Counted from the stretch's first letter, positions 7,530 to 32,023 are shown. The stretch is DNA of 64,000 nucleotides from Candidatus Poribacteria bacterium (GCA_963663765.2 CAXXUA010000005.1:1664001-1728000), one strand, 5' to 3'. Notes: generated by a model not told the origin, from the sequence alone. Translations and numbers: made by a program.

Positions 7530-8747
7530 GTGATGCTATCTCAGGAAACAAAAAATCTTCTACATCTTAGTCTAATTCAAGGAGTTGGACCGAAAACCAT
7601 CTTATCCTTAGTCAATATATTGGGTAGTGCAGAAAAAGTTCTCAACGCTACGTCAGAGGAATTGGAAAAAATTGAAAAACTTTCTCCAAACGCACGAAAA
7701 CGTTTAACCCAAAGAAAACTCGGATGTCCATTAGAACGCGAGTTGGAACTGATACAGGAATATGGATGTCAAATAATAACATACTACGACACATCGTATC
7801 CACTCCTGTTGAAGGAAGTTGACCCACCACCTTTGTTACTTTACGTCAGAGGTGAAGTGAAACCGGAAGATTCACTTGGCTTCGCTATTGTCGGTTCCAG
7901 AGAAGCAAAAGATTATGGACGACGTGTCAGTTACCAATTAGCATACCAACTCGCGAACCGTGGTCTGACTGTCGTCAGTGGGTTCGCAAAGGGTATAGAC
8001 ACCTGTGCACACAGAGGCGCACTGGAAGCTGGCGGCAGAACAATTGCCGTAATGGGAAACGGACTGAGCCTCATCTATCCAGCAGGTAATCAAGAATTGG
8101 TGGAAAAAGTTGTTGAATCTGGCGCATTGATTTCTGAATTTCCGATGGGAATGAAACCAAGATCAGAGAATTTTCCCAGGCGCAATCGCATCATTAGCGG
8201 ATTAACACTTGGAACCGTTGTGGTTGAAGCTTCAAATAGAAGTGGCGCCCTTATAACAGCACGTCTCGCAAGTGAACAAGGTAGGGAGGTATTCGCTGTC
8301 CCAGGAGAAATCTTCTCTGAATTATCAACTGGCACACATAAACTAATTGATAACGGGGCGAAACTCATCAGCAAAGTAGACGATCTAATAGAAGCACTCC
8401 CACATCACGTCATAAATCAAATATCCGCCATCACACCAACATCAGAAACAGATAGAGGGAAGGAAACACCTTTCGTAAACAAGGGCAATCTTGAAGGTAC
8501 AAGCAGCACATTACCAAAATCAACCGATACTGATAAGAAAAAACCTTTACCCAAACCTCCACCACCAGATTTAACATCCGATGAAAAAACGGTGTTTGAT
8601 GCGATTGAAGTCCCTTCAACTCATATTGATACCATCGTCCGAACAACGCAGTTGCCGATTAACCAAATCTCAAGCGCACTGTTGATGTTAGAACTCAAAG
8701 GTGCTATTGAACAGTTACCCGGTAAACAGTTTGCCAAAACTATTTGA
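7530..8747 (+). CDS. dprA: DNA-processing protein DprA
   Basis: AIVGSR, VSGFAKGID, FPRRNRIISGL, SGALITA, VFAVPG motifs; C-terminal winged helix after a Pro-rich linker. Confidence 0.96.
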   Translation: MMLSQETKNLLHLSLIQGVGPKTILSLVNILGSAEKVLNATSEELEKIEKLSPNARKRLTQRKLGCPLERELELIQEYGCQIITYYDTSYPLLLKEVDPPPLLLYVRGEVKPEDSLGFAIVGSREAKDYGRRVSYQLAYQLANRGLTVVSGFAKGIDTCAHRGALEAGGRTIAVMGNGLSLIYPAGNQELVEKVVESGALISEFPMGMKPRSENFPRRNRIISGLTLGTVVVEASNRSGALITARLASEQGREVFAVPGEIFSELSTGTHKLIDNGAKLISKVDDLIEALPHHVINQISAITPTSETDRGKETPFVNKGNLEGTSSTLPKSTDTDKKKPLPKPPPPDLTSDEKTVFDAIEVPSTHIDTIVRTTQLPINQISSALLMLELKGAIEQLPGKQFAKTI

Positions 8748-11241: not shown

Positions 11242-11992
11242 CAAGTTTATTCAGTTTTAAGAGCAGGACTTACGCACCCAACGGTAGGCGTGCTTTGTAA
11301 GCGCGCCGTTGCCAATAGGAGGGAAACCTTGAAATCCCGATTTTCTCACTCAAGGTAGGCGGGGAATGCCTAAACGGCATTCATACCGTTGATTTCTTGA
11401 TTTGATGCTTTGTAAGCGCGCCGTTGCTAATCCTGTGTTTATGACGCACATACAAAACACGCCTACCGGGATGGGGTATTTAGCACTTGGCTTTTTCTTA
11501 AGTTGACACCTATGGGGTCTCTGTGCCCCGCCGCAACTGATTAAATAAGAGATTGCGGAAACAGCACCCATAGGTGTTGTCAACATAAGGAAATATTGTT
11601 AATATCAACCCCATACTCTTCAGTCCCGTAGGGACGATATGTTTATAGATAACGAATACCCTCCCATGTCTTTAGTCCCGTAGGGACGATATGTTTATAG
11701 ATAACGAGTTCCCACCCCTTTTTAGTCCCGTAGGGACGATATGTTTATAGATAACGAATACCCTCCCCATGTCTTTAGTCCCGACAAATGCCATACGCGC
11801 ATTTGGCGTTGATTTGGTAGGGACGATATGTTTATTCTTCTATGCCGTTCCTACGGAACTCAAGAGGGGTAGATAACATATTTCTATAAACATATCGTCC
11901 CTACGGGACTAAAGACATGTACAAGATGGCAATACATAATATTAACGTTATAGTAAACACTCATCAAAAATACCTAAAACTAAATAACCCTG
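11242..11992. mobile_element. Composite, degenerate CAGGG-family MITE with nested element ends and a REP array
   Basis: Degenerate left end caagtttattcagtttt, right end aaaactaaataaccctg. Contains a caggacttacgca end (11264), CATAGG-family ends (~11497-11514, 11569) and agtcccgtagggacgatatg repeats. Confidence 0.65.
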
Positions 11993-13530: not shown

Positions 13531-13531
13531 A

Positions 13532-13964
13532 CAGGGTTATTTAGTTTTAAAAGTTTTCTGTTATTGAGATGGACTGAAAGTTAATACCCAAATGAGGTCT
13601 TCTAACTGCACCTTACACGTCAATTTTAGATTATTGAAACATGAACATCGGTCTTTAGTCCCGACAAATGCCATACGGGGAATGCCTAAATGGCATTCAT
13701 ACCGTTGATTTGGCGCATTTGGCGTTGATTTGGTAGGGACGATATGTTTATAGATAACGAGTACCCTTCCCAGTTCTTCTTTAGTCCCGTAGGGACGATA
13801 TGTTTATTCTTCTATGCCGTTCCTACGGAACTCAAGAGGGGCAGATAACATTTTTCTATAAACATATCGTCCCTACGGGACTAAAGACATGGACAATATG
13901 GCAACACATAATATTAACGTTATAGTAAACATTCATCAAAAATACCTAAAACTGAATAACCCTG
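13532..13964. mobile_element. CAGGG-family MITE
   Basis: 17-bp TIR cagggttatttagtttt / aaaactgaataaccctg; perfect 9-bp target duplication gacgttgaa; internal REP/REPIN cargo. Confidence 0.9.
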
Positions 13965-14047: not shown

Positions 14048-15655
14048 ATGGCAAAAAAGAATTCAGATACAAACGCAAATAATAACGGTGCAACACTCGG
14101 CTTTGAAGCAACTTTATACCAAGCAGCAGATAAACTTCGCAATAACATAGATGCTGCTGAATACAAGCATGTCGTGTTGGGGTTGATTTTCCTCAAATAT
14201 ATTTCTGATTCCTTTGAGGAAAAGTATAACTTTCTACTGGAAGAGTATTCTAATCCACAGAGTGAATTTTTTGTTGCAGAGAAAACAGACCGTTATACGT
14301 ATGCAGAGGATAGAGATGAATACTTAGCAGAAAACATCTTTTATGTACCAAAGGAAGCGCGCTGGTCACATTTACAGGCAAACGCAAAGCAGCCAGAAAT
14401 TGGGAAACTGATTGATAACGCGATGCATGCAATTGAACAGGAAAACCCACGACTCAAAGGTATACTGCCCAAGAACTACGCACGACCAACGCTTGACAAG
14501 CAAACACTCGGTGAACTTGTTGATCTCATCGGCACAATCGGTTTAGGTGAAGAGGAAAATCGCTCAAAAGATATTTTGGGCAGAGTTTATGAATATTTCC
14601 TCGCACGGTTTGCCAGTGCCGAAGGCAAAAGGGGTGGTCAGTTTTACACCCCTCGCTGTGTCGTACAACTACTTGTTGAAATGCTCTCGCCATATCAAGG
14701 AAGAATTTACGACCCTTGCTGCGGTTCAGGCGGCATGTTTGTCCAAAGTGAGGAATTTGTAGAAGCACACGGTGGACAGCGCGATGATATCTCTATTTAT
14801 GGACAGGAGTCCAACCCAACCACGCGGCAATTGGCACTGATGAACCTCGCTATTAGAGGTATTGAGGCGAATCTCGGACAGGAACATGCCGACAGTTTTC
14901 ACGACGATCAACACCCAGACCTGAAAGTCGACTACATCCTCGCTAATCCACCTTTCAACAGTAGCGACTGGGGCGGTGATCGATTACGTGAAGATAAACG
15001 TTGGGCTTACGGCACACCGCCTACCGGCAACGCTAACTTTGCTTGGGTGCAGCACTTTATCTATCACCTCGCACCAAACGGTATCGCTGGATTTGTGTTA
15101 GCAAACGGTTCTATGAGTACAAATACCGCAACCGAAGGCAAAATTCGCAAGAACATTGTTGAGGCAGACTTAGTGGATTGCATGGTCGCTTTGCCCGGGC
15201 AGCTCTTCTATTCTACCTCTATTCCCGTTTGCCTCTGGTTTATCGCAAGGAACAAAGAAAATCGCCGCTTTCGGAAACGTACAGGTGAAACACTTTTTAT
15301 AGATGCACGCAGATTAGGGAAGATGATTGATCGTGTACATCGTGAGTTAACTACTTCAGAAATGAAACGTATAGCCGAAACCTATCACGCATGGCGAGGG
15401 GATGAAGGCGCAAGTGATTATGACGACGTGCCAGGTTTCTGTAAAACCACCACTCTTGTTGAAGTTCAAGAGCACGCTAACGTTCTGACTCCCGGCCGCT
15501 ACGTCGGCGCAGAAATAGTGGAAGAGGACGACGAACTATTTGAAGATACAATGGTAGACTTGACTGAGAAATTGACCGAACAGATGGCAGAGTCAAGGCG
15601 ATTGGATGATGCTATCGCGAAGAATTTGCAAACTCTCGGATTTGGAAATGGATAA
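14048..15655 (+). CDS. hsdM: Type I restriction-modification methyltransferase subunit
   Basis: HsdM N-terminal [32 protein letters not shown] (motif I), NPPF (motif IV). Confidence 0.96.
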
Positions 15656-15664
15656 GAGGAAAAA

Positions 15665-15913
15665 ATGACAGTAAAAGAATTAATGGAATTTCTTGGAAAA
15701 TATCCAGACGATTTACGAGTTGTTGTCAACGGTTATGAGGATGGCTATGACGATATTTTACCAGAACGAATTTCCACCAGAAAAATAGAATTAGACGCAG
15801 GAACGCATGACTGGGAAGGACAACACAACGATCCACCCTATGAAACTGAAACAACAACTGACGATGCCGAAATTGTAGATGCTTTGGTTTTCTATCGCGC
15901 TCCGTATTATTGA
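15665..15913 (+). CDS. Small acidic hypothetical protein
   Basis: 82-aa ORF with RBS gaggaa directly after hsdM; starts MTVKELMEFL..YPDDLRV. Confidence 0.65.
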   Translation: MTVKELMEFLGKYPDDLRVVVNGYEDGYDDILPERISTRKIELDAGTHDWEGQHNDPPYETETTTDDAEIVDALVFYRAPYY

Positions 15914-15960
15914 ACTCAAAGAAAACACATGGCAATACTGAGGTGAAACCTATTAAGGAA

Positions 15961-16117
15961 CAGGACTTACGCACCCAACGGTAGGCGCGCTTTGTAGGTG
16001 GGGAATGCCAAAAGGCATTCATACCGTTGATTTGGCGCTGGAAACCGAAAAAATGCTGAAAATTACACCATTTTCGTCATAATTCTTCATCAAATCATGA
16101 AAACTGCGTAAGTCCTG
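15961..16117. mobile_element. CAGGAC-family MITE
   Basis: Perfect 13-bp TIR caggacttacgca / tgcgtaagtcctg; 6-bp duplication aaggaa; internal gtaggcgcgc REP interrupted by a 35-nt insert. Confidence 0.88.
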
Positions 16118-16135
16118 AAGGAAAATAGAGAAACT

Positions 16136-17461
16136 ATGGAAACCCACGAAAGTCGGGGCATCCGAAAAAACTCATCGAATCTGGTGAAGCTTGAAGATGT
16201 TGTTCAAATTAATCCTCAGCGAACACTTAACAAAACAAACGAGGCATTCCATCTTGCTATGCGAGATGTTGAAGTATACAGACGGAAAATTACTTCACAT
16301 TCATATAAAGAATTTCGGGGATCTGGCGCACGGTTTCAAAATGGAGATACGCTTTTAGCTCGCATCACGCCTTGCCTTGAAAATGGTAAAACTGTATATG
16401 TAGACTGTCTGAAACCTGATCAAGTTGGGCATGGATCAACTGAGTTTATTGTCCTATCTGGAATTAAAGGTAAAACAGATAATTTGTTTGTATACTATTT
16501 AGCAAGAGATCTGAATTTTCGCACGTTCGCAATTCATTCAATGCGGGGTTCTACAGGACGCCAGCGAGTTGATGCAAATTCGTTACGTTTGTTTGATTTG
16601 TCACTACCTTCTATTGAGGAACAACGCCGCATCGCTCACATCCTCGGTACACTTGACGACAAAATAGAACTCAACCGACAGATGAATGAAACACTGGAAG
16701 CGACAGCACGCGCAATTTTCAAGTCGTGGTTTGTGAACTTTGACCCCGTAAAGGCAAAGATGGAGGGACGCACACCTGTATGCATGGATGCCGATACCGC
16801 TGCCTTATTCCCAACAGTATTCCAAGATTCTCCGCTGGGGAAAATTCCGGAAGGATGGACAGTTGGAACACTTGGCGAGATTGCGAAAAATGTTCGGAGG
16901 AGTGTAAAAGCGAGTGAAATTGAATCTATCGACTGTTTTCTTGGATTAGAACACATGCCAAGGCGTAATATCGCTCTTTCTCAATGGCAAATAGATGCTA
17001 ATATCGCAAGTAGTAAGTATCGTTTCAGAAAAGGTGAAATCCTTTTTGGCAAACTTAATCCTCATTTCCATAAGGTTGGCGTTGCACCTATTGACGGGAT
17101 TTGCTCCACTGACATTTTAGTAATTCAACCTATTGATTCAGAATGGTTTGGTGTTATCTTAAGTCTTGTATCAAGTGATAATTTTGTTGCTTATACTACT
17201 GCATGTTCGAAGGGGACAACATTACCACGTACAAATTGGAATGATATGTCACGGTACGAAATCGCACTACCTAAAACGGAAATAGCTAAAAAATATACTG
17301 AATTCATACGACCTATCGTCAAGAAGATAGTCGAAAATATCCATAAATCTCACACCCTTTCCCAAATCCGAGACACACTGCTGCCAAAACTATTATCAGG
17401 TGAAATTCGTGTAGACGATGCAGTTGAGATATTGGAGGCACAAGATGGTGGACAATCCTAA
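16136..17461 (+). CDS. hsdS: Type I restriction-modification specificity subunit
   Basis: Two TRDs joined by LPSIEEQRRIAHILGTLDDKIELNRQMNETLE; ends RDTLLPKLLSGEIRV. Confidence 0.95.
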   Translation: METHESRGIRKNSSNLVKLEDVVQINPQRTLNKTNEAFHLAMRDVEVYRRKITSHSYKEFRGSGARFQNGDTLLARITPCLENGKTVYVDCLKPDQVGHGSTEFIVLSGIKGKTDNLFVYYLARDLNFRTFAIHSMRGSTGRQRVDANSLRLFDLSLPSIEEQRRIAHILGTLDDKIELNRQMNETLEATARAIFKSWFVNFDPVKAKMEGRTPVCMDADTAALFPTVFQDSPLGKIPEGWTVGTLGEIAKNVRRSVKASEIESIDCFLGLEHMPRRNIALSQWQIDANIASSKYRFRKGEILFGKLNPHFHKVGVAPIDGICSTDILVIQPIDSEWFGVILSLVSSDNFVAYTTACSKGTTLPRTNWNDMSRYEIALPKTEIAKKYTEFIRPIVKKIVENIHKSHTLSQIRDTLLPKLLSGEIRVDDAVEILEAQDGGQS

Positions 17462-18959
17462 AGTATTTATTTCATATTCTCACGATTCCCCAGAGCATAA
17501 ACAATGGGTAGCGGAACTTGCTGAAAAACTTCGGCACAGTGGCATTGATGCCATACTTGACCAATGGGACCTTGGATTCGGAGATGATATAACACGATTC
17601 ATGGAACGTGGCATTGTAGATGCTGATAGGGTGTTGGTTATTTGTACAGACAAATACGTGAGCAAAGCAAACGCAAATGAGGGTGGTGTTGGCTATGAGC
17701 GGATGATTGTAAACTCGGAACTTGTTCAGAATTTAGGGACAGACAAATTTATTCCTATCATACGTCAGGCATCAGGAAAAGAAAAAACACCCGTATTTTT
17801 AGGTACAAGAGTTTATGCTGACTTTAGAGATGACAGTCAATTTGACGCGGAATGTGAGAAATTAATTCGTGACCTTCACGAAATGCCAATTATAGAGAAG
17901 CCCCCTTTGGGAAAAAATCCGTTCCCTTCTGTAGCTACAGATCCGCAGCTGGTTGATATTCCGAAGCATGTTGAATCTGCCTCCGAAGCTTACAACACAG
18001 CGTCTAAGATAATACGGACAGGAGACACATTTGGATGGCGTGAACTTATCAAGCAAATTCGACCCAACGTATTTAGAACATTAGTCAAATGGCGGCAAGA
18101 TGAGTTGGACGGTCAAAAACCTGAAGGAAAAGAACACTTAGTTCAAGTTGTGGATAAAGTAGTCGAGATTATATCCCCTTTAATGGCTGTTGCATTAGTG
18201 GGAGTTGCATCTGGTAGAGAGGAATTTCGGAATCAAAAATCTTTGATTGATGACTTGCAAAACATTGTAGGATGGAATCCTGCTGGGTACGATGTTTGGA
18301 TACGTCTTCCGAACGCGTTAGGGTACGTGTACCACAGCCTGCATGGTTGCGTCTGTATGAGTACATCTCAGATAGATCTTGCCCTGGGACTTGCGCGGAT
18401 TAAGATTTCTGTTGTTGTCGAAACTCTCGGAACAAGATTTTTTCCCTTATGGGAAATGAGCGAATTTAGAGGTTATCCCATATCAATTAGTGGAACTCGT
18501 GGTGGAAATAGTCTCGAAAGTTGGAACTATTTGTTTAATGCCTATGATAGATGGGATTGGTTAACTTCTATATTTGAGACTGAATCAGAATACCAAACTT
18601 CATTGGTAGCGTATTACATGTTACTCAATATCCATGAATTAGCAACAGTAATCGCTGCAGGTAGTGCCAACACTTTGAAAACAAGTTCAGAATATTGGTT
18701 CACAGTCCCATTGACTTTTTTGTATGGAGATTACGATATTACGAATCGTGCTACTTCTCTATTGCGTCGTAATCCAGAAGTTTTCATGGAATTATGGACA
18801 TGCTTAGATGTTACGCGTGAGCAGATAGAGAACTCCTGGGATGATTGGACAAACTTGGTTGAAAAAGAATTGTCTAAATTAGTGTTTAGCAAACCTGATA
18901 ATCCAAAATCTCTTTTAAATCTTTCTGATATTTATAGACCTCTCTTTGATGGTATGTAA
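17445..18959 (+). CDS. TIR/SEFIR-like domain protein with unknown helical C-terminal region
   Basis: PKVFISYSHDS, ILDQWDL, ADRVLVICT, GGVGYE motifs. ATG 17445 follows ggagg and overlaps the end of hsdS. Confidence 0.85.
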   Translation: MVDNPKVFISYSHDSPEHKQWVAELAEKLRHSGIDAILDQWDLGFGDDITRFMERGIVDADRVLVICTDKYVSKANANEGGVGYERMIVNSELVQNLGTDKFIPIIRQASGKEKTPVFLGTRVYADFRDDSQFDAECEKLIRDLHEMPIIEKPPLGKNPFPSVATDPQLVDIPKHVESASEAYNTASKIIRTGDTFGWRELIKQIRPNVFRTLVKWRQDELDGQKPEGKEHLVQVVDKVVEIISPLMAVALVGVASGREEFRNQKSLIDDLQNIVGWNPAGYDVWIRLPNALGYVYHSLHGCVCMSTSQIDLALGLARIKISVVVETLGTRFFPLWEMSEFRGYPISISGTRGGNSLESWNYLFNAYDRWDWLTSIFETESEYQTSLVAYYMLLNIHELATVIAAGSANTLKTSSEYWFTVPLTFLYGDYDITNRATSLLRRNPEVFMELWTCLDVTREQIENSWDDWTNLVEKELSKLVFSKPDNPKSLLNLSDIYRPLFDGM

Positions 18960-19016
18960 GTTTAACCGTTATTGCTTGAAATCTTCGAAAATTATCTAAA
19001 ATTTAGTAACACATAG

Positions 19017-20687
19017 ATGACAAAAACTCCTAAGGTCTTCATTTCATATTCTCACGATTCTCGAGATCACAAGCTGTGGGTGTCCAAGTTCGCTGTACGA
19101 CTTCAGCACAATGATGTTGATATTATACTTGATCAGCGTGTCCCTAACCTAGACGAGAACTCTATGCAATTCATGGAATCTGGTGTTAGAGATGCAGATA
19201 GGATCTTGGTCATTTGCACGGACAGTTACGTGCGAAAGGCAAATGATGGTGAAGATGGTATTGGATACGAGCCGATGATTGTAACTCATAAACTTGTTGA
19301 ATATCTCGGAACTAATAAATTCATCTCTATAATTCGTCAGACATTAACAGAAGAGAAAACACCAGAATTTTTGAGAGACCAGGTTTATATTGACTTTACG
19401 GATGACGAACAATTTGATGCAAAATTTGAGGAACTCCTTCATGAACGCCTCTTAGTCCCACCCATACAAACACCTGATGTCCCACACATTGAGTCATTGA
19501 GCATAAAAAACTACCGCGCGCTACGGGATATAGAATTGAAACAACTTAAACCCCTAACTGTCTTTTTAGGCGCAAACGGTAGCGGTAAATCGACGTTCTT
19601 TGATGTGTTCGCTTTCCTCTCTGAATGTTTCACAGTTGGGTTAGATAGCACATGGAAAAAAAGAGGTGGACTTAAAGAACTGAGGAGTCGCGGCTGTGAT
19701 GGCCCAATTGAATTTGAACTAAAATATCGTGAGAAACCTAAATCGCCAATTATCACATACCATCTGTCTATTGATGAAAACATGGAAGGACCATTTATAA
19801 CCACCGAGTGGTTACAGTGGAGGGTCGGTAGAGGCGGAAAACATGTTCGTTTTCTCAATTTTGAGCGTGGGACAGGGAGTGTTATCCCCGGTGAAAAACC
19901 TGATAAAACAGGAACTCCAATTCATGAACAACTTGCTGATCCATCTACACTTGCTGTCAACATGTTTGGTCAATCTTCACAACACCCCCGCATGAGAGCA
20001 CTCCGCCGTTTTATTACAGATTGGCACCTCTCCTGCCTTTCCACCGACGCCACACGCCAGACCACTGACGACGGACCGCAAAAAAGATTGTCCAAAACAG
20101 GAGACAATCTGACCAATGTTATCCAATATCTACAGGAAAGATACCCAGAACGTTTGGAGAAAATCATATCGCTACTGTCGGACCGAGTGCCACGTTTAGA
20201 AATGGTCGACACAGAATTAATGATAGATGGAAGACGTTTGCTGAAAATTAAAGACGCACCTTTTGAACAACCGATTTTGGCAAAGTTCGCTTCCGACGGC
20301 TCATTGAAGCTGCTATCTTACCTAATCCTATTTCATGATAGACAACCGCCGCAATTCATCGGTATTGAAGAACCTGAGAATTACCTACACCCACGCCTGT
20401 TGACCGGTTTAGTCGGGGACTGTTTTAATGCATCAGCTTCGTCTCAACTTATGATTACCACCCATTCACCTCATTTTGTTAATGAACTTCATCCTGAGGA
20501 TGTGTGGGTTTTGTATCGGGATGAACAAGGTTTCACAGTGTGTAAACGCGCGTCGGAGATGCAGGGAATAGAGCAGCTTTTGGATGCTGGCGCGAAATTA
20601 GGGAAACTCTGGATGGAAGGTTACTTTGAATTCGGTGACCCGTTGACCAATGCAGGAGGTCCAAAGCGAAATCTGCATGCACATTAA
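19017..20687 (+). CDS. TIR/SEFIR domain fused to an ABC-type (AAA_21-like) ATPase
   Basis: N-terminal PKVFISYSHDS...GIGYE; Walker A GANGSGKST, signature ASDGSLK, Walker B IGIEEPEN, H-loop ITTHSP. Confidence 0.88.
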   Translation: MTKTPKVFISYSHDSRDHKLWVSKFAVRLQHNDVDIILDQRVPNLDENSMQFMESGVRDADRILVICTDSYVRKANDGEDGIGYEPMIVTHKLVEYLGTNKFISIIRQTLTEEKTPEFLRDQVYIDFTDDEQFDAKFEELLHERLLVPPIQTPDVPHIESLSIKNYRALRDIELKQLKPLTVFLGANGSGKSTFFDVFAFLSECFTVGLDSTWKKRGGLKELRSRGCDGPIEFELKYREKPKSPIITYHLSIDENMEGPFITTEWLQWRVGRGGKHVRFLNFERGTGSVIPGEKPDKTGTPIHEQLADPSTLAVNMFGQSSQHPRMRALRRFITDWHLSCLSTDATRQTTDDGPQKRLSKTGDNLTNVIQYLQERYPERLEKIISLLSDRVPRLEMVDTELMIDGRRLLKIKDAPFEQPILAKFASDGSLKLLSYLILFHDRQPPQFIGIEEPENYLHPRLLTGLVGDCFNASASSQLMITTHSPHFVNELHPEDVWVLYRDEQGFTVCKRASEMQGIEQLLDAGAKLGKLWMEGYFEFGDPLTNAGGPKRNLHAH

Positions 20688-21300
20688 ATTCTTCTTAGAG
20701 GAGCTTTCTGCTGAGGTAGCATTAAAGCATATCTTGCCCAAGATTCTTTCACCAGATGTCATTTGTATCTTCCATGCATTTGAAGGAAAGGATGACATGC
20801 TCAAGGAATTGCCAAAGTTTATGAAAGGACACCGATGGATACCTAACGACTGGCGACTTATCGTGTTAATTGATGAAGATCGAAGAGACTGTCACGAACT
20901 CAAAGCAAAATTAGAAAAAGCAGCACACGATGCGGGTTTTGTGACAAAATCCAGTGCTGCTCCGAATGAAGACTTTCAAGTCGTCAATCGGTTAGCAATT
21001 GAAGAATTAGAGGCATGGTTTTTTGGAGACGTTGAGGCTTTACATGCAGCTTATCCAAGAATCTCAAAAAACCTCCAAACTCAAGCAAAATATCGTGATC
21101 CCGATGCAATTGGGGGAGGTACATGTGAGGCTTTAGAACATCTACTGAAACAAGCGCACTATTATAAGGGTTATCTACCCAAACGTGAGGTGGCTCAGAA
21201 GATCGCACAACACATGGAACCGAGTCGGAACACATCCAAAAGTTTTCAGGTTTTTGTTAATGGGCTTAAAGCATGTGTAGGAGAAGAATCATTGGTGTAA
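20677..21300 (+). CDS. DUF4276-like protein (partner of ABC ATPases, TOPRIM-like)
   Basis: FFLEELS, LIDED, IEELEAWFFGD, NTSKSF motifs; start overlaps the ATPase stop region. Confidence 0.8.
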   Translation: MHIKFFLEELSAEVALKHILPKILSPDVICIFHAFEGKDDMLKELPKFMKGHRWIPNDWRLIVLIDEDRRDCHELKAKLEKAAHDAGFVTKSSAAPNEDFQVVNRLAIEELEAWFFGDVEALHAAYPRISKNLQTQAKYRDPDAIGGGTCEALEHLLKQAHYYKGYLPKREVAQKIAQHMEPSRNTSKSFQVFVNGLKACVGEESLV

Positions 21301-21318
21301 CTTGGTTAGGACAATAAT

Positions 21319-24300
21319 ATGAATCTCAATACAATTTACGAATCCGACATTGAAGAAGCTGCGCTCAATTGGTTTGCCGACTTGAGTTATACTGTTTTAC
21401 ACGGTCCCGAGATCGCCGCAGACGCGCCCAATGCAGAACGTTCCACTTACAAAGAAGTGGTCTTGACATCGCGCTTACGAGATGCCGTTGCCCGCCTAAA
21501 TCCAACAATACCTGCTGATGCACAGCAAGAAGCAATCCGCAAAGTGCTTAATCCAGATTCTCCCGCTTTAGGGAAAAACAACCGCGCATTTCATCAAATG
21601 CTTATTGACGGTATAGAGGTTGAATATCGGCAAGCTGATGGAACGATACGTGGTGATCGTGTGCGGTTAGTCGATTTTGAAGCACCAGAAAACAACGATT
21701 GGCTTGCAGTCAACCAGTTTACAGTCGTAGGTACAAACGAATGCCGTCCGGACGTTGTGTTATTTATCAACGGACTTCCCTTAGCTATCATAGAACTTAA
21801 AAACCCAACTAACGAGAAAGCAACTACCCTAACAGCATTTCGCCAAATCCAGACCTACAAACAAGAAATTTCGGCACTATTCACCTATAACGAAGCGGTT
21901 GTTATCTCTGATGGATTAGAGGCGCGCATCGGATCATTAACTGCCGACACGGATTGGTTTTTGCCGTGGCGCACAATTGAAGGTGAAGGAGAAGCACCAT
22001 CTACTGAATTAGAGTTAGAAATATTGATTAAAGGTGTTTTTGACAAACGTCGTTTTTTGCGTTATCTTAAACACTTTATCGTCTTTGAAGAAACAGAAAG
22101 CGGAGCAATTGCCAAAAAAATCGCTGGGTATCACCAATTCCATGCTGTTCAAACAGCCGTAGAAGCAACGCTAAAAGCGTCATGTCCTGAAGGCGATCAA
22201 CAGTGCGGTGTCGTCTGGCATACACAAGGTTCTGGCAAAAGCTTAACGATGGCTTTTTACGCTGGCAACATCGTACAACATCCGCAGATGGAAAACCCAA
22301 CCCTTGTCGTCATCACTGACACAAACGACTTAGACGACCAACTGTTTGGCACATTCGCTCGATGCCACCAACTTTTGCGACAAACACCAGAACAAGCAAA
22401 AAATAGACAACACTTACGTGAACTCCTTAAAGTTGCCTCTGGAGGCGTAGTCTTTACTACTGTTCAAAAGTTTTTCACTGAAGGTGAAGAGACCCGTTTT
22501 CCGCAGCTGTCTGATCGACGAAATATCGTGGTAATTGCAGACGAAGCACACCGTAGCCAATACGGCTTTATTGATGGCTTTGCCGCTCACATGCGCGATG
22601 CACTTCCCAATGCCTCTTTTATCGGTTTTACCGGTACACCCATTGAACTCACTGATCGCAATACAGTTGCTGTTTTTGGAGAATACATAAGCACGTATGA
22701 TATCCAGCAGGCGGTTGATGATGGAGCAACCGTGCCAATTTACTACGAGAGTCGCCTCGCAAAAATTGAGCTTGACGAAGACGAAAAACCGTACATTGAC
22801 CCGGAATTCGAGGAACTTACCGAGACGGAGGAGGCAACAGAAAGGGAAAAACTCAAAACCAAATGGGCACAACTTGAGGCGTTGGTGGGAACAGAAAAAC
22901 GCTTGGGACTCATCGCAGATGATATAATTGCACATTTTGAAGAACGGTTAGAGACAATAGATGGTAAAGGTATGATTGTTTGTATGAGCCGCCGTATCTG
23001 CGTTGACCTCTACAATGCAATTATTCAACGCCGTCCAGAGTGGCACAACGATGATGACAAGGAAGGCGAAATAAAGGTCGTCATGACAGGGTCAGCTTCT
23101 GATGACGCATCATGGCAACCGCATATCCGCAACAAAACAAGGCGAGAAACGTTGGCAAATCAATTTAAAAAACCCAATGATCCGTTGAAACTTGTTATTG
23201 TCCGCGATATGTGGCTAACCGGATTTGACGCGCCGAGTCTTCACACTATGTATGTAGACAAACCGATGCGTGGACATGGACTGATGCAAGCAATTGCCCG
23301 CGTTAATCGTGTCTATGGCGATAAACCGGGCGGTTTGATAGTAGATTATATCGGACTTGCCTACCACCTGAAAAACGCATTAAGTAATTATACCAGAAGC
23401 GGTGGGAAAGGAAAGGCTACCCTTGACAAAGCTGAAGCCGTCGCCGTAATGATGGAAAAGCATGAAATCTGCTGTAACTTATTTCACGGATTCGATTGGT
23501 CATTATGGACTACAGGGAAAACGTCAGATCGACTCAAATTGCTACCTGCAGCGCAAGAGCATATCCTGCAACAAAAGGATGGAAAAAAGCGTATACTGGA
23601 AGAAGTTTCTGCTCTAACTAAAGCATTTGCACTGGCTGTCCCACATGAAAAAACAACCGAAATACGCGACGATGTCTCCTTTTTTCAAACGGTAAGAAAA
23701 GTTCTGGCTAAGCCATCGGCTGCAGAAGAAGCACAGTTGGATGCCGCAGACCAAGCAATTAAGCAGTTGGTTTCCAAAGCTGTTATTCCTGAAGGTGTAG
23801 TAGATATATTCTCCGCTGCTGGGCTGGAAAAGCCTGATGTCTCTATTCTCTCCGATGAATTTCTTGCAGAAGTGCAAGACCTTCCCCATAAAAACTTGGC
23901 AGTTGAACTCTTGGAAAAACTCCTCAACGGAGAAATTAAAACGCGCTCACAGAAAAACGTTGTCCAAGGTCGATCATTTGCAGAAATGTTGGAACGATCA
24001 ATCCGTTCCTATCAGAACCGAACAGTTGAAGCGGCACAAGTCATTGAAGAACTTATTGAAATCGCAGGAGTGATGCGTCAAGCGCAAGACCGAGGTGAAA
24101 AATTAGGATTGTCAGAAGAAGAATTAGCATTTTATGATGCTCTTGAAACTAACGATAGTGCAGTCCAAGTACTCGGTGATGAAACACTGCGCAACATCGC
24201 TATTGAACTTGTAGAAACCGTTCGCAAGAGTGTGGCAATTGACTGGACAATGAAAGAAAGTGTACGTGCAAATATACGAAGGTTGGTGAAGCGCATTCTT

Positions 24301-24393
24301 CGCAGACACGGTTACCCGCCTGATAAACAAGAAAAAGCTGCCCAAACTGTTTTAGAACAGACAGAAGTGTTATGTAAAAACTGGGTAATATAG
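21319..24393 (+). CDS. hsdR: Type I restriction endonuclease subunit R
   Basis: PD..(FINGLP)..ELK nuclease motif, [34 protein letters not shown]. Confidence 0.96.
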
Positions 24394-24415
24394 TACAATA
24401 CCTTCGCCAATAATA

Positions 24416-24808
24416 CAGCGTTATTTAGTTTTAAAAGTTTTCTGTTATTGAGATTTACTGAAAGTTAATACCCAAATGAGGTCTCCTAACTGCACCTTAC
24501 ACATCAATTTTAGATTCTTGAAACATGAACATCGGTCTTTAGTCCCGACAAATGCCACACGCGCATTTGGCGTTGATTTGGTAGGGACGATATGTTTATA
24601 GAAAACGAATACCATCCACAGTTCTTTAGTCCCGTAGGGACGATATGTTTATTCTTCTATGTCGTTCCTACGGAACTCAATTGGGGTGGAAAACATTTTC
24701 TATAAACATATCGTCCCTACGGGACTAAAGACATGGACAATATGGCAACACATAATATTAACGTTATAGTAAACATTCATCAAAAATACCTAAAACTGAA
24801 TAACCCTG
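24416..24808. mobile_element. CAGGG-family MITE, abutting a 20-bp CAATACC-family end at 24396
   Basis: cagcgttatttagtttt ... aaaactgaataaccctg; highly similar to 13532..13964; left and right flanks do not match each other. Confidence 0.88.
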
Positions 24809-24891: not shown

Positions 24892-26649
24892 ATGGATTTC
24901 AGTGACGAAGAGATCAAACGCCAGATACGTTTAGGTGAAGACAGCCACTGGGAATTCAAGGAAATTGTATTCACAGGAAACAAACCCAAAAGCCCTAACC
25001 GGGATGATCTTGCAGACGAAATCGCTGCATTCGCCAACACAGATGGTGGTGTGGTACTATGTGGCGTAACCGATGACGGTGATGTTCAAGGCATGTCGCG
25101 CGAGCAGATGGACAAATTAGAGATGTTCTTGGTACAAATTTGCACCGACACAATTAAACCGGCAATTCGTCCTACAATATTACGCCGAGAAATAGAGCAA
25201 AGGAAACCTTTTCTTCTCGTTGAAATACCACAAGTTTATACACAGCACGACAGTCTTGGAGGCAGCTTCCACCGAGTCGGCAGCTCAAAACGTAAAATGA
25301 CAAGCGATGAACGCCTACGTCTTGCACAGCGACGTGGACAGGCACGGTTCCTCTGGTACGACAAACAGCCGGTCCCTGGCACAGGTTTCGGTTCATTGGA
25401 TGAATCGCTTTGGAAACCACTATTGAGTGCCGAAGGTGCAGCCAACCCTGTATTAACACTAGAGAAAATGGGACTCCTAACCGACGATGAAAAAGGGATA
25501 ACGCGGGCAACGGTAGCAGGTGTTCTTTTGTGCACCCGTTCTCCTGAAGAATGGCTTCCCAATGCCTGCATCTCTGTGACCTATTATAGAGGTACAGACC
25601 GCGCCTCTGGACAAATAGATGCTCAAGTAATTACCGGACCCCTGAACAGACAGATTGCAGAAGCGGTTGCATTCGCAGTTCGTAACATGCGTGTTGGTGC
25701 GTACAAAAATCCCGCTCGAACTGACCTGCCGCAATATAGCAAAAAAACTTTGTTTGAAGCAATTGTGAACGCAATTGTACATCGTGACTACTCAATTCGC
25801 GGCAGCCGAATACGTATCTCAATGTTTTCTGACCGCATTGAAATTGCTTCTCCCGGTGGTCTGCCAAACAATCTCACTATTGATAGCATGAACATCCGAC
25901 AATCAACACGAAATGAGGCACTCGCTTCAATATTCGGAAGGATGTCCGTAGAAAATGTGCACGGATCGGGGGAACGACAATTTTTCATGGAACGCCGTGG
26001 AGACGGAGTACCAATCATTTTACGCGAAACAGAAGCTTTATGCGGAAAACTCCCAGATTATCAACTCGTTGATAATTCTGAACTTGTTCTTACTATCCCA
26101 GCTGCAGATACTCAATTGACCCCAGCAACCGTTGATATCTTTGTTCACCATAATGGTATACCTCTATCAAATATTGACCTATTAGTTATGTTTCCAAATA
26201 AAACGTATGAGCGCTCTCGCACTGATGAAAATGGTAATACGCAAATTGATCTACACACAACACATCTACCGATGACGGTGTTTGCAGCCGCACCAAGCCT
26301 TACTGCATATCTTGAACGCAATTGGATTCCCGAGAAAGGACAACTTTCGTTTGAAATGACAAGTCTTCAACATGGCGGATCAGTAATCTTTAGTAATACA
26401 ATTGGTAGTATTCCGGGTTTATCAGGACGGTTGAACCCCATACGTGATACACACAACCGCACCTACCTGTCCGCTTCAAATATAACTATTAATGAAGGAA
26501 AACCACTGCCAGTTCATTTCTCTATAGGTGAAGACTTACACCTAACAGATACCAAAGGAAAAGAAATGTTAGTACGTATCGTTGAGATTATTGGAAAATC
26601 AGCTCTATTAGAATATCGTCCTTTCAGTAAATCAGATAAGACAAAATAA
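24892..26649 (+). CDS. AlbA_2/Schlafen-like domain + HATPase_c_4 protein with a beta-rich C-terminal extension
   Basis: GEDSHWEFKE, AFANTDGG..GVTDDG, EAIVNAIVHRDY, FSDRIEIASPG, MERRGDGV motifs. Confidence 0.85.
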   Translation: MDFSDEEIKRQIRLGEDSHWEFKEIVFTGNKPKSPNRDDLADEIAAFANTDGGVVLCGVTDDGDVQGMSREQMDKLEMFLVQICTDTIKPAIRPTILRREIEQRKPFLLVEIPQVYTQHDSLGGSFHRVGSSKRKMTSDERLRLAQRRGQARFLWYDKQPVPGTGFGSLDESLWKPLLSAEGAANPVLTLEKMGLLTDDEKGITRATVAGVLLCTRSPEEWLPNACISVTYYRGTDRASGQIDAQVITGPLNRQIAEAVAFAVRNMRVGAYKNPARTDLPQYSKKTLFEAIVNAIVHRDYSIRGSRIRISMFSDRIEIASPGGLPNNLTIDSMNIRQSTRNEALASIFGRMSVENVHGSGERQFFMERRGDGVPIILRETEALCGKLPDYQLVDNSELVLTIPAADTQLTPATVDIFVHHNGIPLSNIDLLVMFPNKTYERSRTDENGNTQIDLHTTHLPMTVFAAAPSLTAYLERNWIPEKGQLSFEMTSLQHGGSVIFSNTIGSIPGLSGRLNPIRDTHNRTYLSASNITINEGKPLPVHFSIGEDLHLTDTKGKEMLVRIVEIIGKSALLEYRPFSKSDKTK

Positions 26650-28473: not shown

Positions 28474-28907
28474 TACCATTTTCATGTGATAATGTCTCAT
28501 TAGCAGCGGAAATCTGGTAGGAGCGACCTCCCGGTCGCGACAGTGAGATCGCTCCTAAGCAGCGGAAATCTGGTAGGAGCGACCTCCCGGTCGCGACAGT
28601 GAGATCGCTCCTAAGCAGCGGAAATCTGGTAGGAGCGACCTCCCGGTCGCGACAGTGAGATCGCTCCTAAGCAGCGGAAATCTGGTAGGAGCGACCTCCC
28701 GGTCGCGACAGTGAGATCGCTCCTAAGCAGCGGAAATCTGGTAGGAGCGACCTCCCGGTCGCGACAGTGAGATCGCTCCTAAGCAGCGGAAATCTGGTAG
28801 GAGCGACCTCCCGGTCGCGACAGTGAGGGCGCTCCTACCGAAGAGAGTAACCCCATGCCAGTAAACAGTAGAATTCCTTAATGAGACAAGATTTATTTGA
28901 ATTGGTA
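28474..28907. mobile_element. TACCA-family MITE with an internal 56-bp tandem array
   Basis: Imperfect TIR taccattttca..tgtctcatta / taatgagaca..tgaattggta; TAA duplicated on both sides. Confidence 0.85.
28502..28837 (+). repeat. Six tandem 56-bp units, each containing a GTAG REP
   Basis: agcagcggaaatctggtaggagcgacctcccggtcgcgacagtgagatcgctccta repeated at 28502, 28558, 28614, 28670, 28726, 28782; the last unit varies slightly. Confidence 0.95.
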
Positions 28908-31694: not shown

Positions 31695-32023
31695 ACGAGT
31701 TGTGCTAAATAACTATATGTTAATCATTGTATCACATAAGCATGACGTTTTGCAGGTGTCCTTCATAGGTTGAAACGATCTTCAGTCCCGTAGGGACGAT
31801 ATGTTTATAGAAAAACGGCATAGTACATCCTCTTTAGTCCCGTAGGGACGATATGTTTATAGAAATACGGCATAGTACATCCTCTTTAGTCCCGTAGGGA
31901 CGATATGTTTATAGAAAAACGGCATAGTACATCCTCTTTAGTCCCGTAGGGACGATATGTGTGCATTATAAACCTAAAATATGTAAAAACTTTGAAAACA
32001 ATGGGTTAACTGGCACAAGTCGT
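31695..32023. mobile_element. MITE with AC...GT termini carrying a 52-bp REP tandem array
   Basis: TIR acgagttgtgc / gcacaagtcgt; 7-bp duplication tatatta; four agtcccgtagggacgatatg units inside. Confidence 0.8.

Follow-up and report, generated by a model that had tools for sequence, protein, structure and literature searches.

What do three additional genes do inside a type I restriction-modification (R-M) operon, and do they act together? The question is raised by a 64,000-nt stretch of DNA from the sponge symbiont Candidatus Poribacteria (GCA_963663765.2 CAXXUA010000005.1:1664001-1728000; hereafter the window, to which all coordinates refer unless a locus is named), in which genes A (17445..18959), B (19017..20687) and C (20677..21300) lie tightly packed and co-directional on the + strand, wedged between hsdS and hsdR. 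An earlier note on this DNA, made from the sequence alone, had described them as a candidate abortive-infection cassette embedded in the R-M operon. The open reading frame (ORF) list, the translations and the Pfam identities of the HsdM, HsdS and HsdR neighbours confirmed the embedding, and the cassette reading is supported as well. We lean towards regarding the three genes as an anti-phage module of the abortive-infection type, in which two known kinds of parts, one resembling bSEFIR and one of the HEC-01 type, have become linked in Poribacteria.

Domain content of genes A, B and C

Gene A (504 aa) begins with a SEFIR/TIR-like domain (residues 1-155; 17445..17909; Pfam TIR_2 2.9e-23, SEFIR 6.4e-16), and the N-terminus of gene B (556 aa) carries its paralogue (residues 1-150; 19017..19466; TIR_2 4.2e-15, SEFIR 8.4e-11). 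With PADLOC used as a set of profile models on single proteins, both matched bSEFIR, A over residues 8-223 (7.9e-80) and B over residues 1-154 (4e-54). The two domains share 55% identity across 155 aa (E 5e-59), and the suspicion that they are related even at the DNA level was borne out: a common 20-mer is present at exactly two places in the window, 17469 and 19041, compared with none in 100 shuffles, and a 121-nt stretch is 71% identical between the genes (family D6). The nearest solved structure is the bacterial SEFIR PDB 5y8e (A 6.8e-28, ∼40% identity; B 6.1e-20), and a Foldseek search of full-length A against PDB returned SEFIR/TIR matches only, including the IL-17RA/RB/ACT1 helical assembly. 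bSEFIR is described as a validated single-protein anti-phage system (bioRxiv 10.1101/2022.05.11.491447; Millman et al. 2022) that is reported to deplete nicotinamide adenine dinucleotide (NAD+) by means of the SEFIR domain at its N-terminus (10.1101/2024.02.11.579819; 10.64898/2026.09.04.749371).

Both domains contain the motif G-x-G-Y-E, with the glutamate at residue 85 in each (G-V-G-Y-E85 in A). The statement that the two proteins keep this glutamate where the TIR catalytic residue is expected therefore stands as far as the presence and conservation of the motif are concerned. E85 of A is kept in all 42 close SEFIR-bearing homologues and in 73 of the 82 rows of a remote alignment, in which the nearby E79 is not conserved, and in a set of 120 homologues of B the conservation of its E85 reaches at least 98%. 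A glutamate also occupies the aligned place in the solved Bacillus cereus SEFIR, and does not do so at the aligned position of eukaryotic Act1. A second residue, Asp39 (ILDQW), is kept in 42/42 A homologues and present in B; it is the putative counterpart of D40 in the validated bSEFIR, a predicted SEFIR-SEFIR contact whose mutation is reported to have abolished defence (bioRxiv 10.1101/2022.05.11.491447).

The remainder of gene B is an ABC ATPase domain of the HEC-01A type (residues 156-556; 19482..20687). Pfam AAA_21 (6.3e-24) and also AAA_15 match within residues 156-541, and PADLOC HEC-01A (PDLC04182) matches the same residues at 1.9e-152, spanning profile positions 2-404 of 406. Sequence matches of this part in PDB are weak even at best (3e-06 or poorer). 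The ATPase motifs are intact, as the earlier note had seen: Walker A (G185-T193), Q-loop (G318-Q-S), signature (S426-D-G-S), Walker B (F447-E452) and H-loop (T481-S484) are at least 98% conserved or invariant among the 120 homologues, and invariant or nearly so in a 68-row alignment.

Gene C matches PADLOC HEC-01B (PDLC04202) at 3.8e-84 and Pfam DUF4276 at 1e-30; the latter is its sole Pfam match, and HEC-01 profiles are its only PADLOC matches. Its start, ATG 20677, is where the HEC-01B profile begins (residue 10 of the longer ORF) and leaves an 11-nt overlap with gene B, in agreement with the coupling of a DUF4276-like gene to the TIR-ATPase gene that had been proposed. Acidic residues E8, D66-x-D68 and E109/E110/E112 are conserved in 36 sequences, and this E8/DxD/EELE series is recognized as a Toprim pattern because it matches the description of DUF4276 in PMC12065111, which places the family in the Toprim superfamily with a catalytic Glu and DxD and calls it a Mad4 homologue. 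C is a probable TOPRIM-like nuclease effector. HEC-01 is presented as a candidate system that pairs an ABC ATPase with a TOPRIM protein inside Hma and other restriction systems, R-M among them (10.1101/2024.01.29.577857), and protection by one representative is reported for at least one of the phages T7, T5 and T4 (10.1101/2024.09.26.614923). The view that this architecture does not correspond to a named system is thus not supported in that form, as its parts carry the names bSEFIR, HEC-01A and HEC-01B, and the novelty of the cassette is tempered to that extent.

No such name is available for the C-terminal 335-aa helical domain of gene A (residues 170-504; 17952..18959), which matched no Pfam, NCBIfam or PADLOC model and belongs to an uncharacterised family. 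Its AlphaFold (AF2) model, built on a 104-row alignment, is confident (predicted local distance difference test score 94.3, predicted template modelling score 0.93) and mostly helical, with one beta-hairpin pair. Foldseek with the domain alone found nothing at E≤0.001 in PDB (best 0.066, template modelling score ≤0.34) or among viral structures, an ESM Atlas search returned 'hypothetical protein' clusters only, and tblastn against 72,556 plasmids gave no match. An exhaustive HMMER search collected 361 representative clusters in which the domain is always at the C-terminus, mostly of ∼500-aa proteins. Most relatives have a SEFIR/TIR N-terminus, which for the ∼500-aa majority was taken from precomputed Pfam assignments and alignment columns, and some are stand-alone forms of ∼340 aa. 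A Pfam scan covered the 35 relatives of odd length among the 116 of at least 300 aa, and identified nine with a protein kinase domain, one with a ParA-like domain and one with a LexA DNA-binding domain plus SEFIR. Fusion of the helical domain to a Ser/Thr kinase was found in P0267, P0300, P0332, P0342, P0352, P0366, P0383 and P0386; the three tested against PADLOC (P0300, P0342 and P0386) all match the PD-T4-6 and mad6 defence kinase models, and these proteins may represent a sister of the SEFIR proteins that is armed with a kinase. Because the domain is common to two types of defence effector (SEFIR and PD-T4-6-like kinase), it looks like a sensor or regulator, probably a swappable module. 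With a confident fold, no solved or annotated relative and two effector types, it is a good candidate for a new phage-sensing module.

Distribution and history of the SEFIR-ATPase fusion

Full-length relatives of the fused gene B form at least 120 clusters at 90% identity (554-645 aa, mostly 556), which are 73-85% identical to it over 99-100% of the length. The fusion is therefore not an assembly artefact, and the prospect that it might be unique to this assembly, which the earlier note had offered as grounds for rejecting its own proposal, did not materialize. Two of the clusters are named, both as Candidatus Poribacteria, and a tblastn search of B against plasmids returned 243 records, none of which spanned the SEFIR part.

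Loci were then surveyed using one genome per species (41 loci), with the window proteins mapped by tblastn and ORF integrity inspected. Ten loci share the arrangement of the window, A followed by fused B and C (L002, L003, L004, L005, L006, L009, L011, L015, L017 and L028), and in two more (L001 and L008) fused B and C are accompanied by an A reduced to its C-domain (349-350 aa, no SEFIR). Fused B stands alone in one locus (L019), where A and C are absent and hsdS has an in-frame stop. Two loci (L007 and L029) combine A with unfused B and C, and the remaining 26 have unfused B without A, i.e. plain HEC-01; the absence of A is not judgeable in L010, L031 and L035, which have <300 nt of upstream sequence. 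Plain HEC-01 loci include cyanobacteria, Elusimicrobiaceae, Sumerlaeota and Chloroflexi. The unfused form of B accounts for 28/41 loci, while the fusion is restricted to Poribacteria (13/13 fused loci). Gene C lies downstream in 39/41, being missing in L019 and L030. At two unfused HEC-01 loci (L027 11200-11821 and L039 11215-11816) the match to the DUF4276 gene is broken into two pieces that overlap, pointing to a frameshift or an assembly error.

A quick maximum-likelihood analysis of 41 SEFIR domains places all 14 B SEFIRs in a single clade (SH-aLRT 99); the 13 Poribacteria A SEFIRs group with it (81), and 14 outgroup SEFIRs fall apart from both. Read from this topology, the B SEFIR would be a single duplication of the A SEFIR onto the ATPase, which points to a fusion that arose once, from A's own domain. 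All fused and three-gene loci fall within one clade of 20 in the ATPase tree (support 90), together with L007 and five unfused loci (L010, L012, L013, L014 and L016), and the two loci whose A has no SEFIR (L001 and L008) are in different subclades. The simplest history would comprise a single origin of the fusion, several events in which A and the B SEFIR were lost together, two independent losses of the A SEFIR with the helical domain kept, and decay of A where B lost its SEFIR. Median pairwise ratios of non-synonymous to synonymous substitution rates (dN/dS) were 0.20 for the B SEFIR, 0.125 for the B ATPase, 0.095 for the A SEFIR and 0.245 for the A C-domain, values that are rough because dS is near 1; all four segments are under purifying selection.

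Gene A also varies together with the state of gene B. An A-type gene lies directly upstream in 12/13 loci with fused B and is one intact ORF in all 12, whereas both loci with A beside an unfused B, the only such loci, have it split into two ORFs (324+150 aa and 354+127 aa in L007 and L029, respectively). This suggests that A, specifically its C-domain, works with the SEFIR of B. As the A SEFIR was lost twice and the C-domain was kept beside a SEFIR-bearing B, any coupling between A and B would run through the C-domain and not through the A SEFIR. In view of the same two independent losses, the earlier proposal that B recruits A by TIR-TIR contacts is not supported as it stood. A complex prediction of full-length B with the A C-domain scored 0.01, and was counted neither for nor against binding.

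Proposed mechanism, known systems and alternative readings

The closest described arrangement is HEC-01, which is characterized by adjacent, overlapping genes for an ABC ATPase and a DUF4276 TOPRIM-like partner, embedded in a multi-gene restriction system, all of which are found here. Unlike HEC-01, the ATPase has a 150-aa N-terminal SEFIR outside the HEC-01A profile (which matches from residue 156) and is preceded by the bSEFIR-like gene A; the word SEFIR occurs nowhere in the main text of the HEC paper (10.1101/2024.01.29.577857; supplements lay outside the search). Gene A resembles bSEFIR in its layout, a bacterial SEFIR at the N-terminus (sharing 40% identity with the solved domain from Bacillus cereus) and a further domain at the C-terminus. 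However, it aligns to profile positions 33-250 of 412 only, rather than over the full length of the family, and its helical C-domain is of another family with no profile model. Furthermore, bSEFIR is a single-gene system, whereas A is part of a conserved three-gene unit with a second SEFIR on the neighbouring ATPase.

The pairing of an ABC ATPase with a TOPRIM nuclease is shared with PARIS (AriA + AriB) and OLD/Gabija, as is a possible link to anti-restriction sensing. The AriA models match B only partly (8.3e-24 and 1.2e-23, in two stretches) and the AriA/AriB pair is not present: AriB is DUF4435 and the OLD partner TOPRIM_OLD, compared with DUF4276 here. PARIS is not known to have been described with a TIR-family domain. 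Pairs of AAA_21 and DUF4276 proteins have been placed in the PARIS ATPase phylogeny (PMC11464382). MADS (Mad3/Mad4) and Menshen (NsnB/NsnC-DUF4276) likewise join an AAA_21-type ATPase to a DUF4276 Toprim effector, and B matches the PADLOC mad3 (6.5e-21) and NsnB (4.8e-17) models. It is not a Mad3 equivalog, since it scores 108 bits on NCBIfam antiphage_MADS3 (MAD3) against a cut-off of 420, and a scan of the locus ORFs revealed no other genes of MADS or Menshen. Thoeris was considered and rejected (ThsB model E 0.0096 with no significant stretch; NCBIfam ThcB4 15.8 bits against a cut-off of 220); no ThsA-like match was present among the listed PADLOC matches of 45 window ORFs scanned. Lastly, PrrC and RloC occupy the same niche, in that their genes too encode ABC-type ATPases and lie inside type I R-M operons, in the hsdS-hsdR interval. 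Each is one protein that carries a nuclease domain at its own C-terminus, whereas in the cassette the nuclease candidate, which is TOPRIM-like, is encoded apart from the ATPase, with NADase-type domains in addition. Both are among the ABC-ATPase defences named by Payne et al. (10.1101/2024.01.29.577857).

Within this framework, the core of the cassette would be the HEC-01 pair, ABC ATPase B translationally coupled to TOPRIM-like C, in which an assembly of B would hold or control nuclease C until a phage cue frees it, by analogy with PARIS and the OLD family. Two lineage-specific additions would have been made to this core: the bSEFIR-like protein A, whose helical C-domain most likely senses or regulates, and the N-terminal SEFIR on the ATPase, which would stem from a single duplication of A's. 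The SEFIRs of A and B would be NAD+ hydrolases that need to be brought together, and oligomerisation or ATP-driven rearrangement of B would bring them together and turn NAD+ hydrolysis on. The helical domain of A would sense a phage cue or restrain the SEFIRs, acting in cis on its own and in trans on that of B. The two outputs, NAD+ depletion and TOPRIM-mediated nucleic-acid cleavage, would halt the infected cell. Our leaning towards an abortive-infection module extends to this mechanism as a whole. The sharper claim, that the cassette is a three-component, dual-effector machine in which the helical sensor of A controls in trans a SEFIR NADase on an ATPase that also controls a TOPRIM nuclease, is put forward tentatively, as a possibility we would not bet on.

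If that claim were true, a single phage cue would trigger NAD+ depletion and nucleic-acid cleavage alike, the locus would provide the first TIR-family domain on the PARIS/OLD-like class of ATPases, and two neighbouring defence systems would have been caught being welded by duplication of an effector domain. An ABC ATPase with a TOPRIM partner embedded in R-M, and a SEFIR NADase acting in defence, are known already; no description of the SEFIR-ATPase fusion, of its origin from a neighbouring gene or of its co-variation with a new helical domain was found in the literature (bioRxiv supplements lay outside the search). HEC-01 is among the commonest restriction-embedded candidates, with an unexplained mechanism and weak experimental support, and a NADase-type domain on its ATPase would make NAD+ level a simple readout of when and how that ATPase activates. 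The Poribacteria series at one orthologous site (unfused, fused, A with and without SEFIR, and decayed) also offers a natural comparison of defence-gene linkage.

Several points weigh against the proposed mechanism. The enzymatic activities, the trigger, any contact between A and B and the order of events are all deduced from sequence. Hidden Markov model alignments to TIR NADases end just before E85, so equivalence with the catalytic Glu is suggested by position and conservation rather than by superposition. The SEFIR tree is a quick maximum-likelihood version, and the ATPase tree was built using FastTree only. The co-variation is based on small counts, contributed for the most part by a single orthologous site within one phylum (17 loci), so that the cases are not independent events, and an apparent frameshift in a metagenome-assembled genome may be an assembly error. 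L019 retains a fused B with neither A nor C, in a locus whose hsdS is itself interrupted. HEC-01 is reported to have given no protection in the original screen (10.1101/2024.01.29.577857; Payne et al.). Furthermore, A could be an independent tenant of a permissive slot, as B and C occur without it in 26/41 loci.

This last point leads to the main rival, which we consider rather unlikely: two independent systems sharing a slot, A a self-contained bSEFIR-type protein and B+C an HEC-01 with an extra SEFIR, with no cross-talk between them. The A N-terminus and B+C do match separate PADLOC families, bSEFIR functions as a single protein (bioRxiv 10.1101/2022.05.11.491447), HEC-01 commonly lacks A, and the SEFIR plus helical C-domain architecture is widespread, its 361 representative clusters being mostly ∼500 aa. 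The Meiothermus taiwanensis plasmid NZ_CP021131.1 (L042, 5257-8865) carries, in order, hsdM, DUF262, hsdS, DUF4433, macro domain, AAA ATPase, DUF4276 and hsdR; because DUF4433 and macro-domain genes sit there in the position of A, this position is a slot able to hold other modules. What independence does not account for is that the B SEFIR is a duplicate of the A SEFIR, that A is intact in 12/12 loci with fused B and split in 2/2 with unfused B, and that C-domain-only A persists beside fused B in two subclades, ∼340-aa forms being widespread elsewhere. Such an A would imply a partner protein, because a sensor without an effector makes little sense alone.

The guard and adaptor readings are less likely than independence. 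In the former, which we regard as improbable although its trigger is compatible with the mechanism above, the ATPase would detect phage anti-restriction proteins (DNA mimics like Ocr) that disable the type I enzyme around it, and would then fire nuclease and NADase in the manner of PARIS. PARIS is triggered by anti-restriction proteins, the B ATPase is weakly and partly similar to AriA (8.3e-24), and the cassette shares an operon with hsdS and hsdR, its genes lying between these two and overlapping or almost abutting. The HEC-01 pair recurs between hsdS and hsdR in 17/41 related loci, as well as in the window and on the Meiothermus plasmid, and thus in Poribacteria, Elusimicrobiaceae (L032) and Meiothermus. 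However, no hsd gene was found in the other 24/41 (within the locus DNA examined). The window's own chromosomal site, between a sulfatase gene and a STAS/DUF6807 pair, is shared by 17 Poribacteria loci. Among the 12 loci with A, fused B and C, hsdS and hsdR flank the cassette in six (L002, L003, L004, L011, L015 and L028), while six (L001, L005, L006, L008, L009 and L017) have A, B and C intact at the same site with no hsd gene. Since hsd genes are absent from half of these loci, the cassette survives without the restriction enzyme, and an obligate role as guard of R-M, as the earlier note had suggested, is not supported; sensing of anti-restriction proteins remains compatible with the data. 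C is moreover DUF4276 rather than the DUF4435 of AriB, and a trigger cannot be inferred from sequence. Still less probable is that the SEFIRs are non-enzymatic adaptors which only tether A to B or build an assembly, as in eukaryotic IL-17R/Act1, leaving C as the sole effector. Eukaryotic SEFIR domains are described as interaction modules, and the contact-breaking mutation that abolished bSEFIR defence is in keeping with this (bioRxiv 10.1101/2022.05.11.491447), as are the Foldseek matches to the IL-17RA/RB/ACT1 assembly. Against this stand the reported depletion of NAD+ by bacterial SEFIR (10.1101/2024.02.11.579819; 10.64898/2026.09.04.749371) and the G-x-G-Y-E glutamate, which is kept in 42/42 A homologues and at least 98% of the 120 B homologues and is shared by the solved bacterial SEFIR but absent from the corresponding place in Act1. 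In addition, the persistence of cassettes whose A has lost its SEFIR argues against an essential SEFIR-SEFIR tether.

Operon layout and neighbouring features

The + strand from 14048 to 24393 reads as one operon, in the order hsdM, a conserved 82-aa ORF, hsdS, genes A, B and C, and hsdR. The methyltransferase gene hsdM (14048..15655, +) matches Pfam N6_Mtase (8.6e-109) and HsdM_N (6.6e-26) and PADLOC MTase_I (2.1e-217). It is followed by the 82-aa ORF (15665..15913, +), for which Pfam, PADLOC and NCBIfam gave no match; tblastn found full-length counterparts (64-87% identity) at the same position in L003, L004, L012, L013, L016 and L023, and it is possibly a small regulator or another embedded gene. 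The specificity subunit gene hsdS (16136..17461, +; Pfam Methylase_S 3.4e-23, PADLOC Specificity_I 1.1e-99) overlaps the start of A by its last 17 nt, B begins 57 nt after A, and hsdR (21319..24393, +; Pfam HSDR_N, SWI2_SNF2 and T1RH-like_C, PADLOC REase_I at 1138 bits) begins 18 nt after C. The start of gene A is most likely ATG 17445, with ggagg in front; the same 504-aa form is present in the protein database (P0123). A promoter scan revealed no excess of promoter-like sites (28 found, 27.7 expected) and no trustworthy internal terminator, and no Rfam family was found anywhere in the window. The Meiothermus operon described above holds three embedded modules within a single type I R-M operon (DUF262; DUF4433 plus macro domain; the HEC-01 pair), the second of which we take to be of the DarT/DarG kind, an NAD+-using toxin-antitoxin pair.

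Intergenic repeats with a palindromic core (GTCCCGTAGGGAC...) bracket the hsdM-to-hsdR block at 13531-13964 and 24415-24808, and are also present at 11617-11992 and 31779-31960. A 147-nt stretch (D4) is 95% identical between both flanks, and 52-nt units are present in both orientations. These repeats could mediate gain or loss of the block at a hotspot. A CRISPR-like reading of the 52-nt repeats was ruled out, as the 'spacer' parts are repeated too (88-97% between copies). A different repeat, six near-identical (99%) tandem copies of a 56-nt unit with no Rfam match, lies at 28502-28837, directly downstream of the DUF6807 gene.

Among 33 other window ORFs scanned, the sole further PADLOC match was a 405-aa protein (7530-8747) that matches the models for ShosA and PsyrA (8.3e-68) but probably belongs to the DprA family of DNA-processing proteins and not among the defence genes. 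Lastly, a 585-aa protein encoded at 24892-26649 combines Schlafen AlbA_2 and HATPase_c_4 (Pfam), with partial PADLOC matches to Argonaute-associated domains. The position of this gene varies by species: it follows hsdR in the window, L003 and L004, lies between hsdM and hsdS in L002, L011, L012, L014, L016, L019, L023, L028 and L029, and adjoins the cassette in loci without R-M. It is possibly another embedded defence or regulatory gene.

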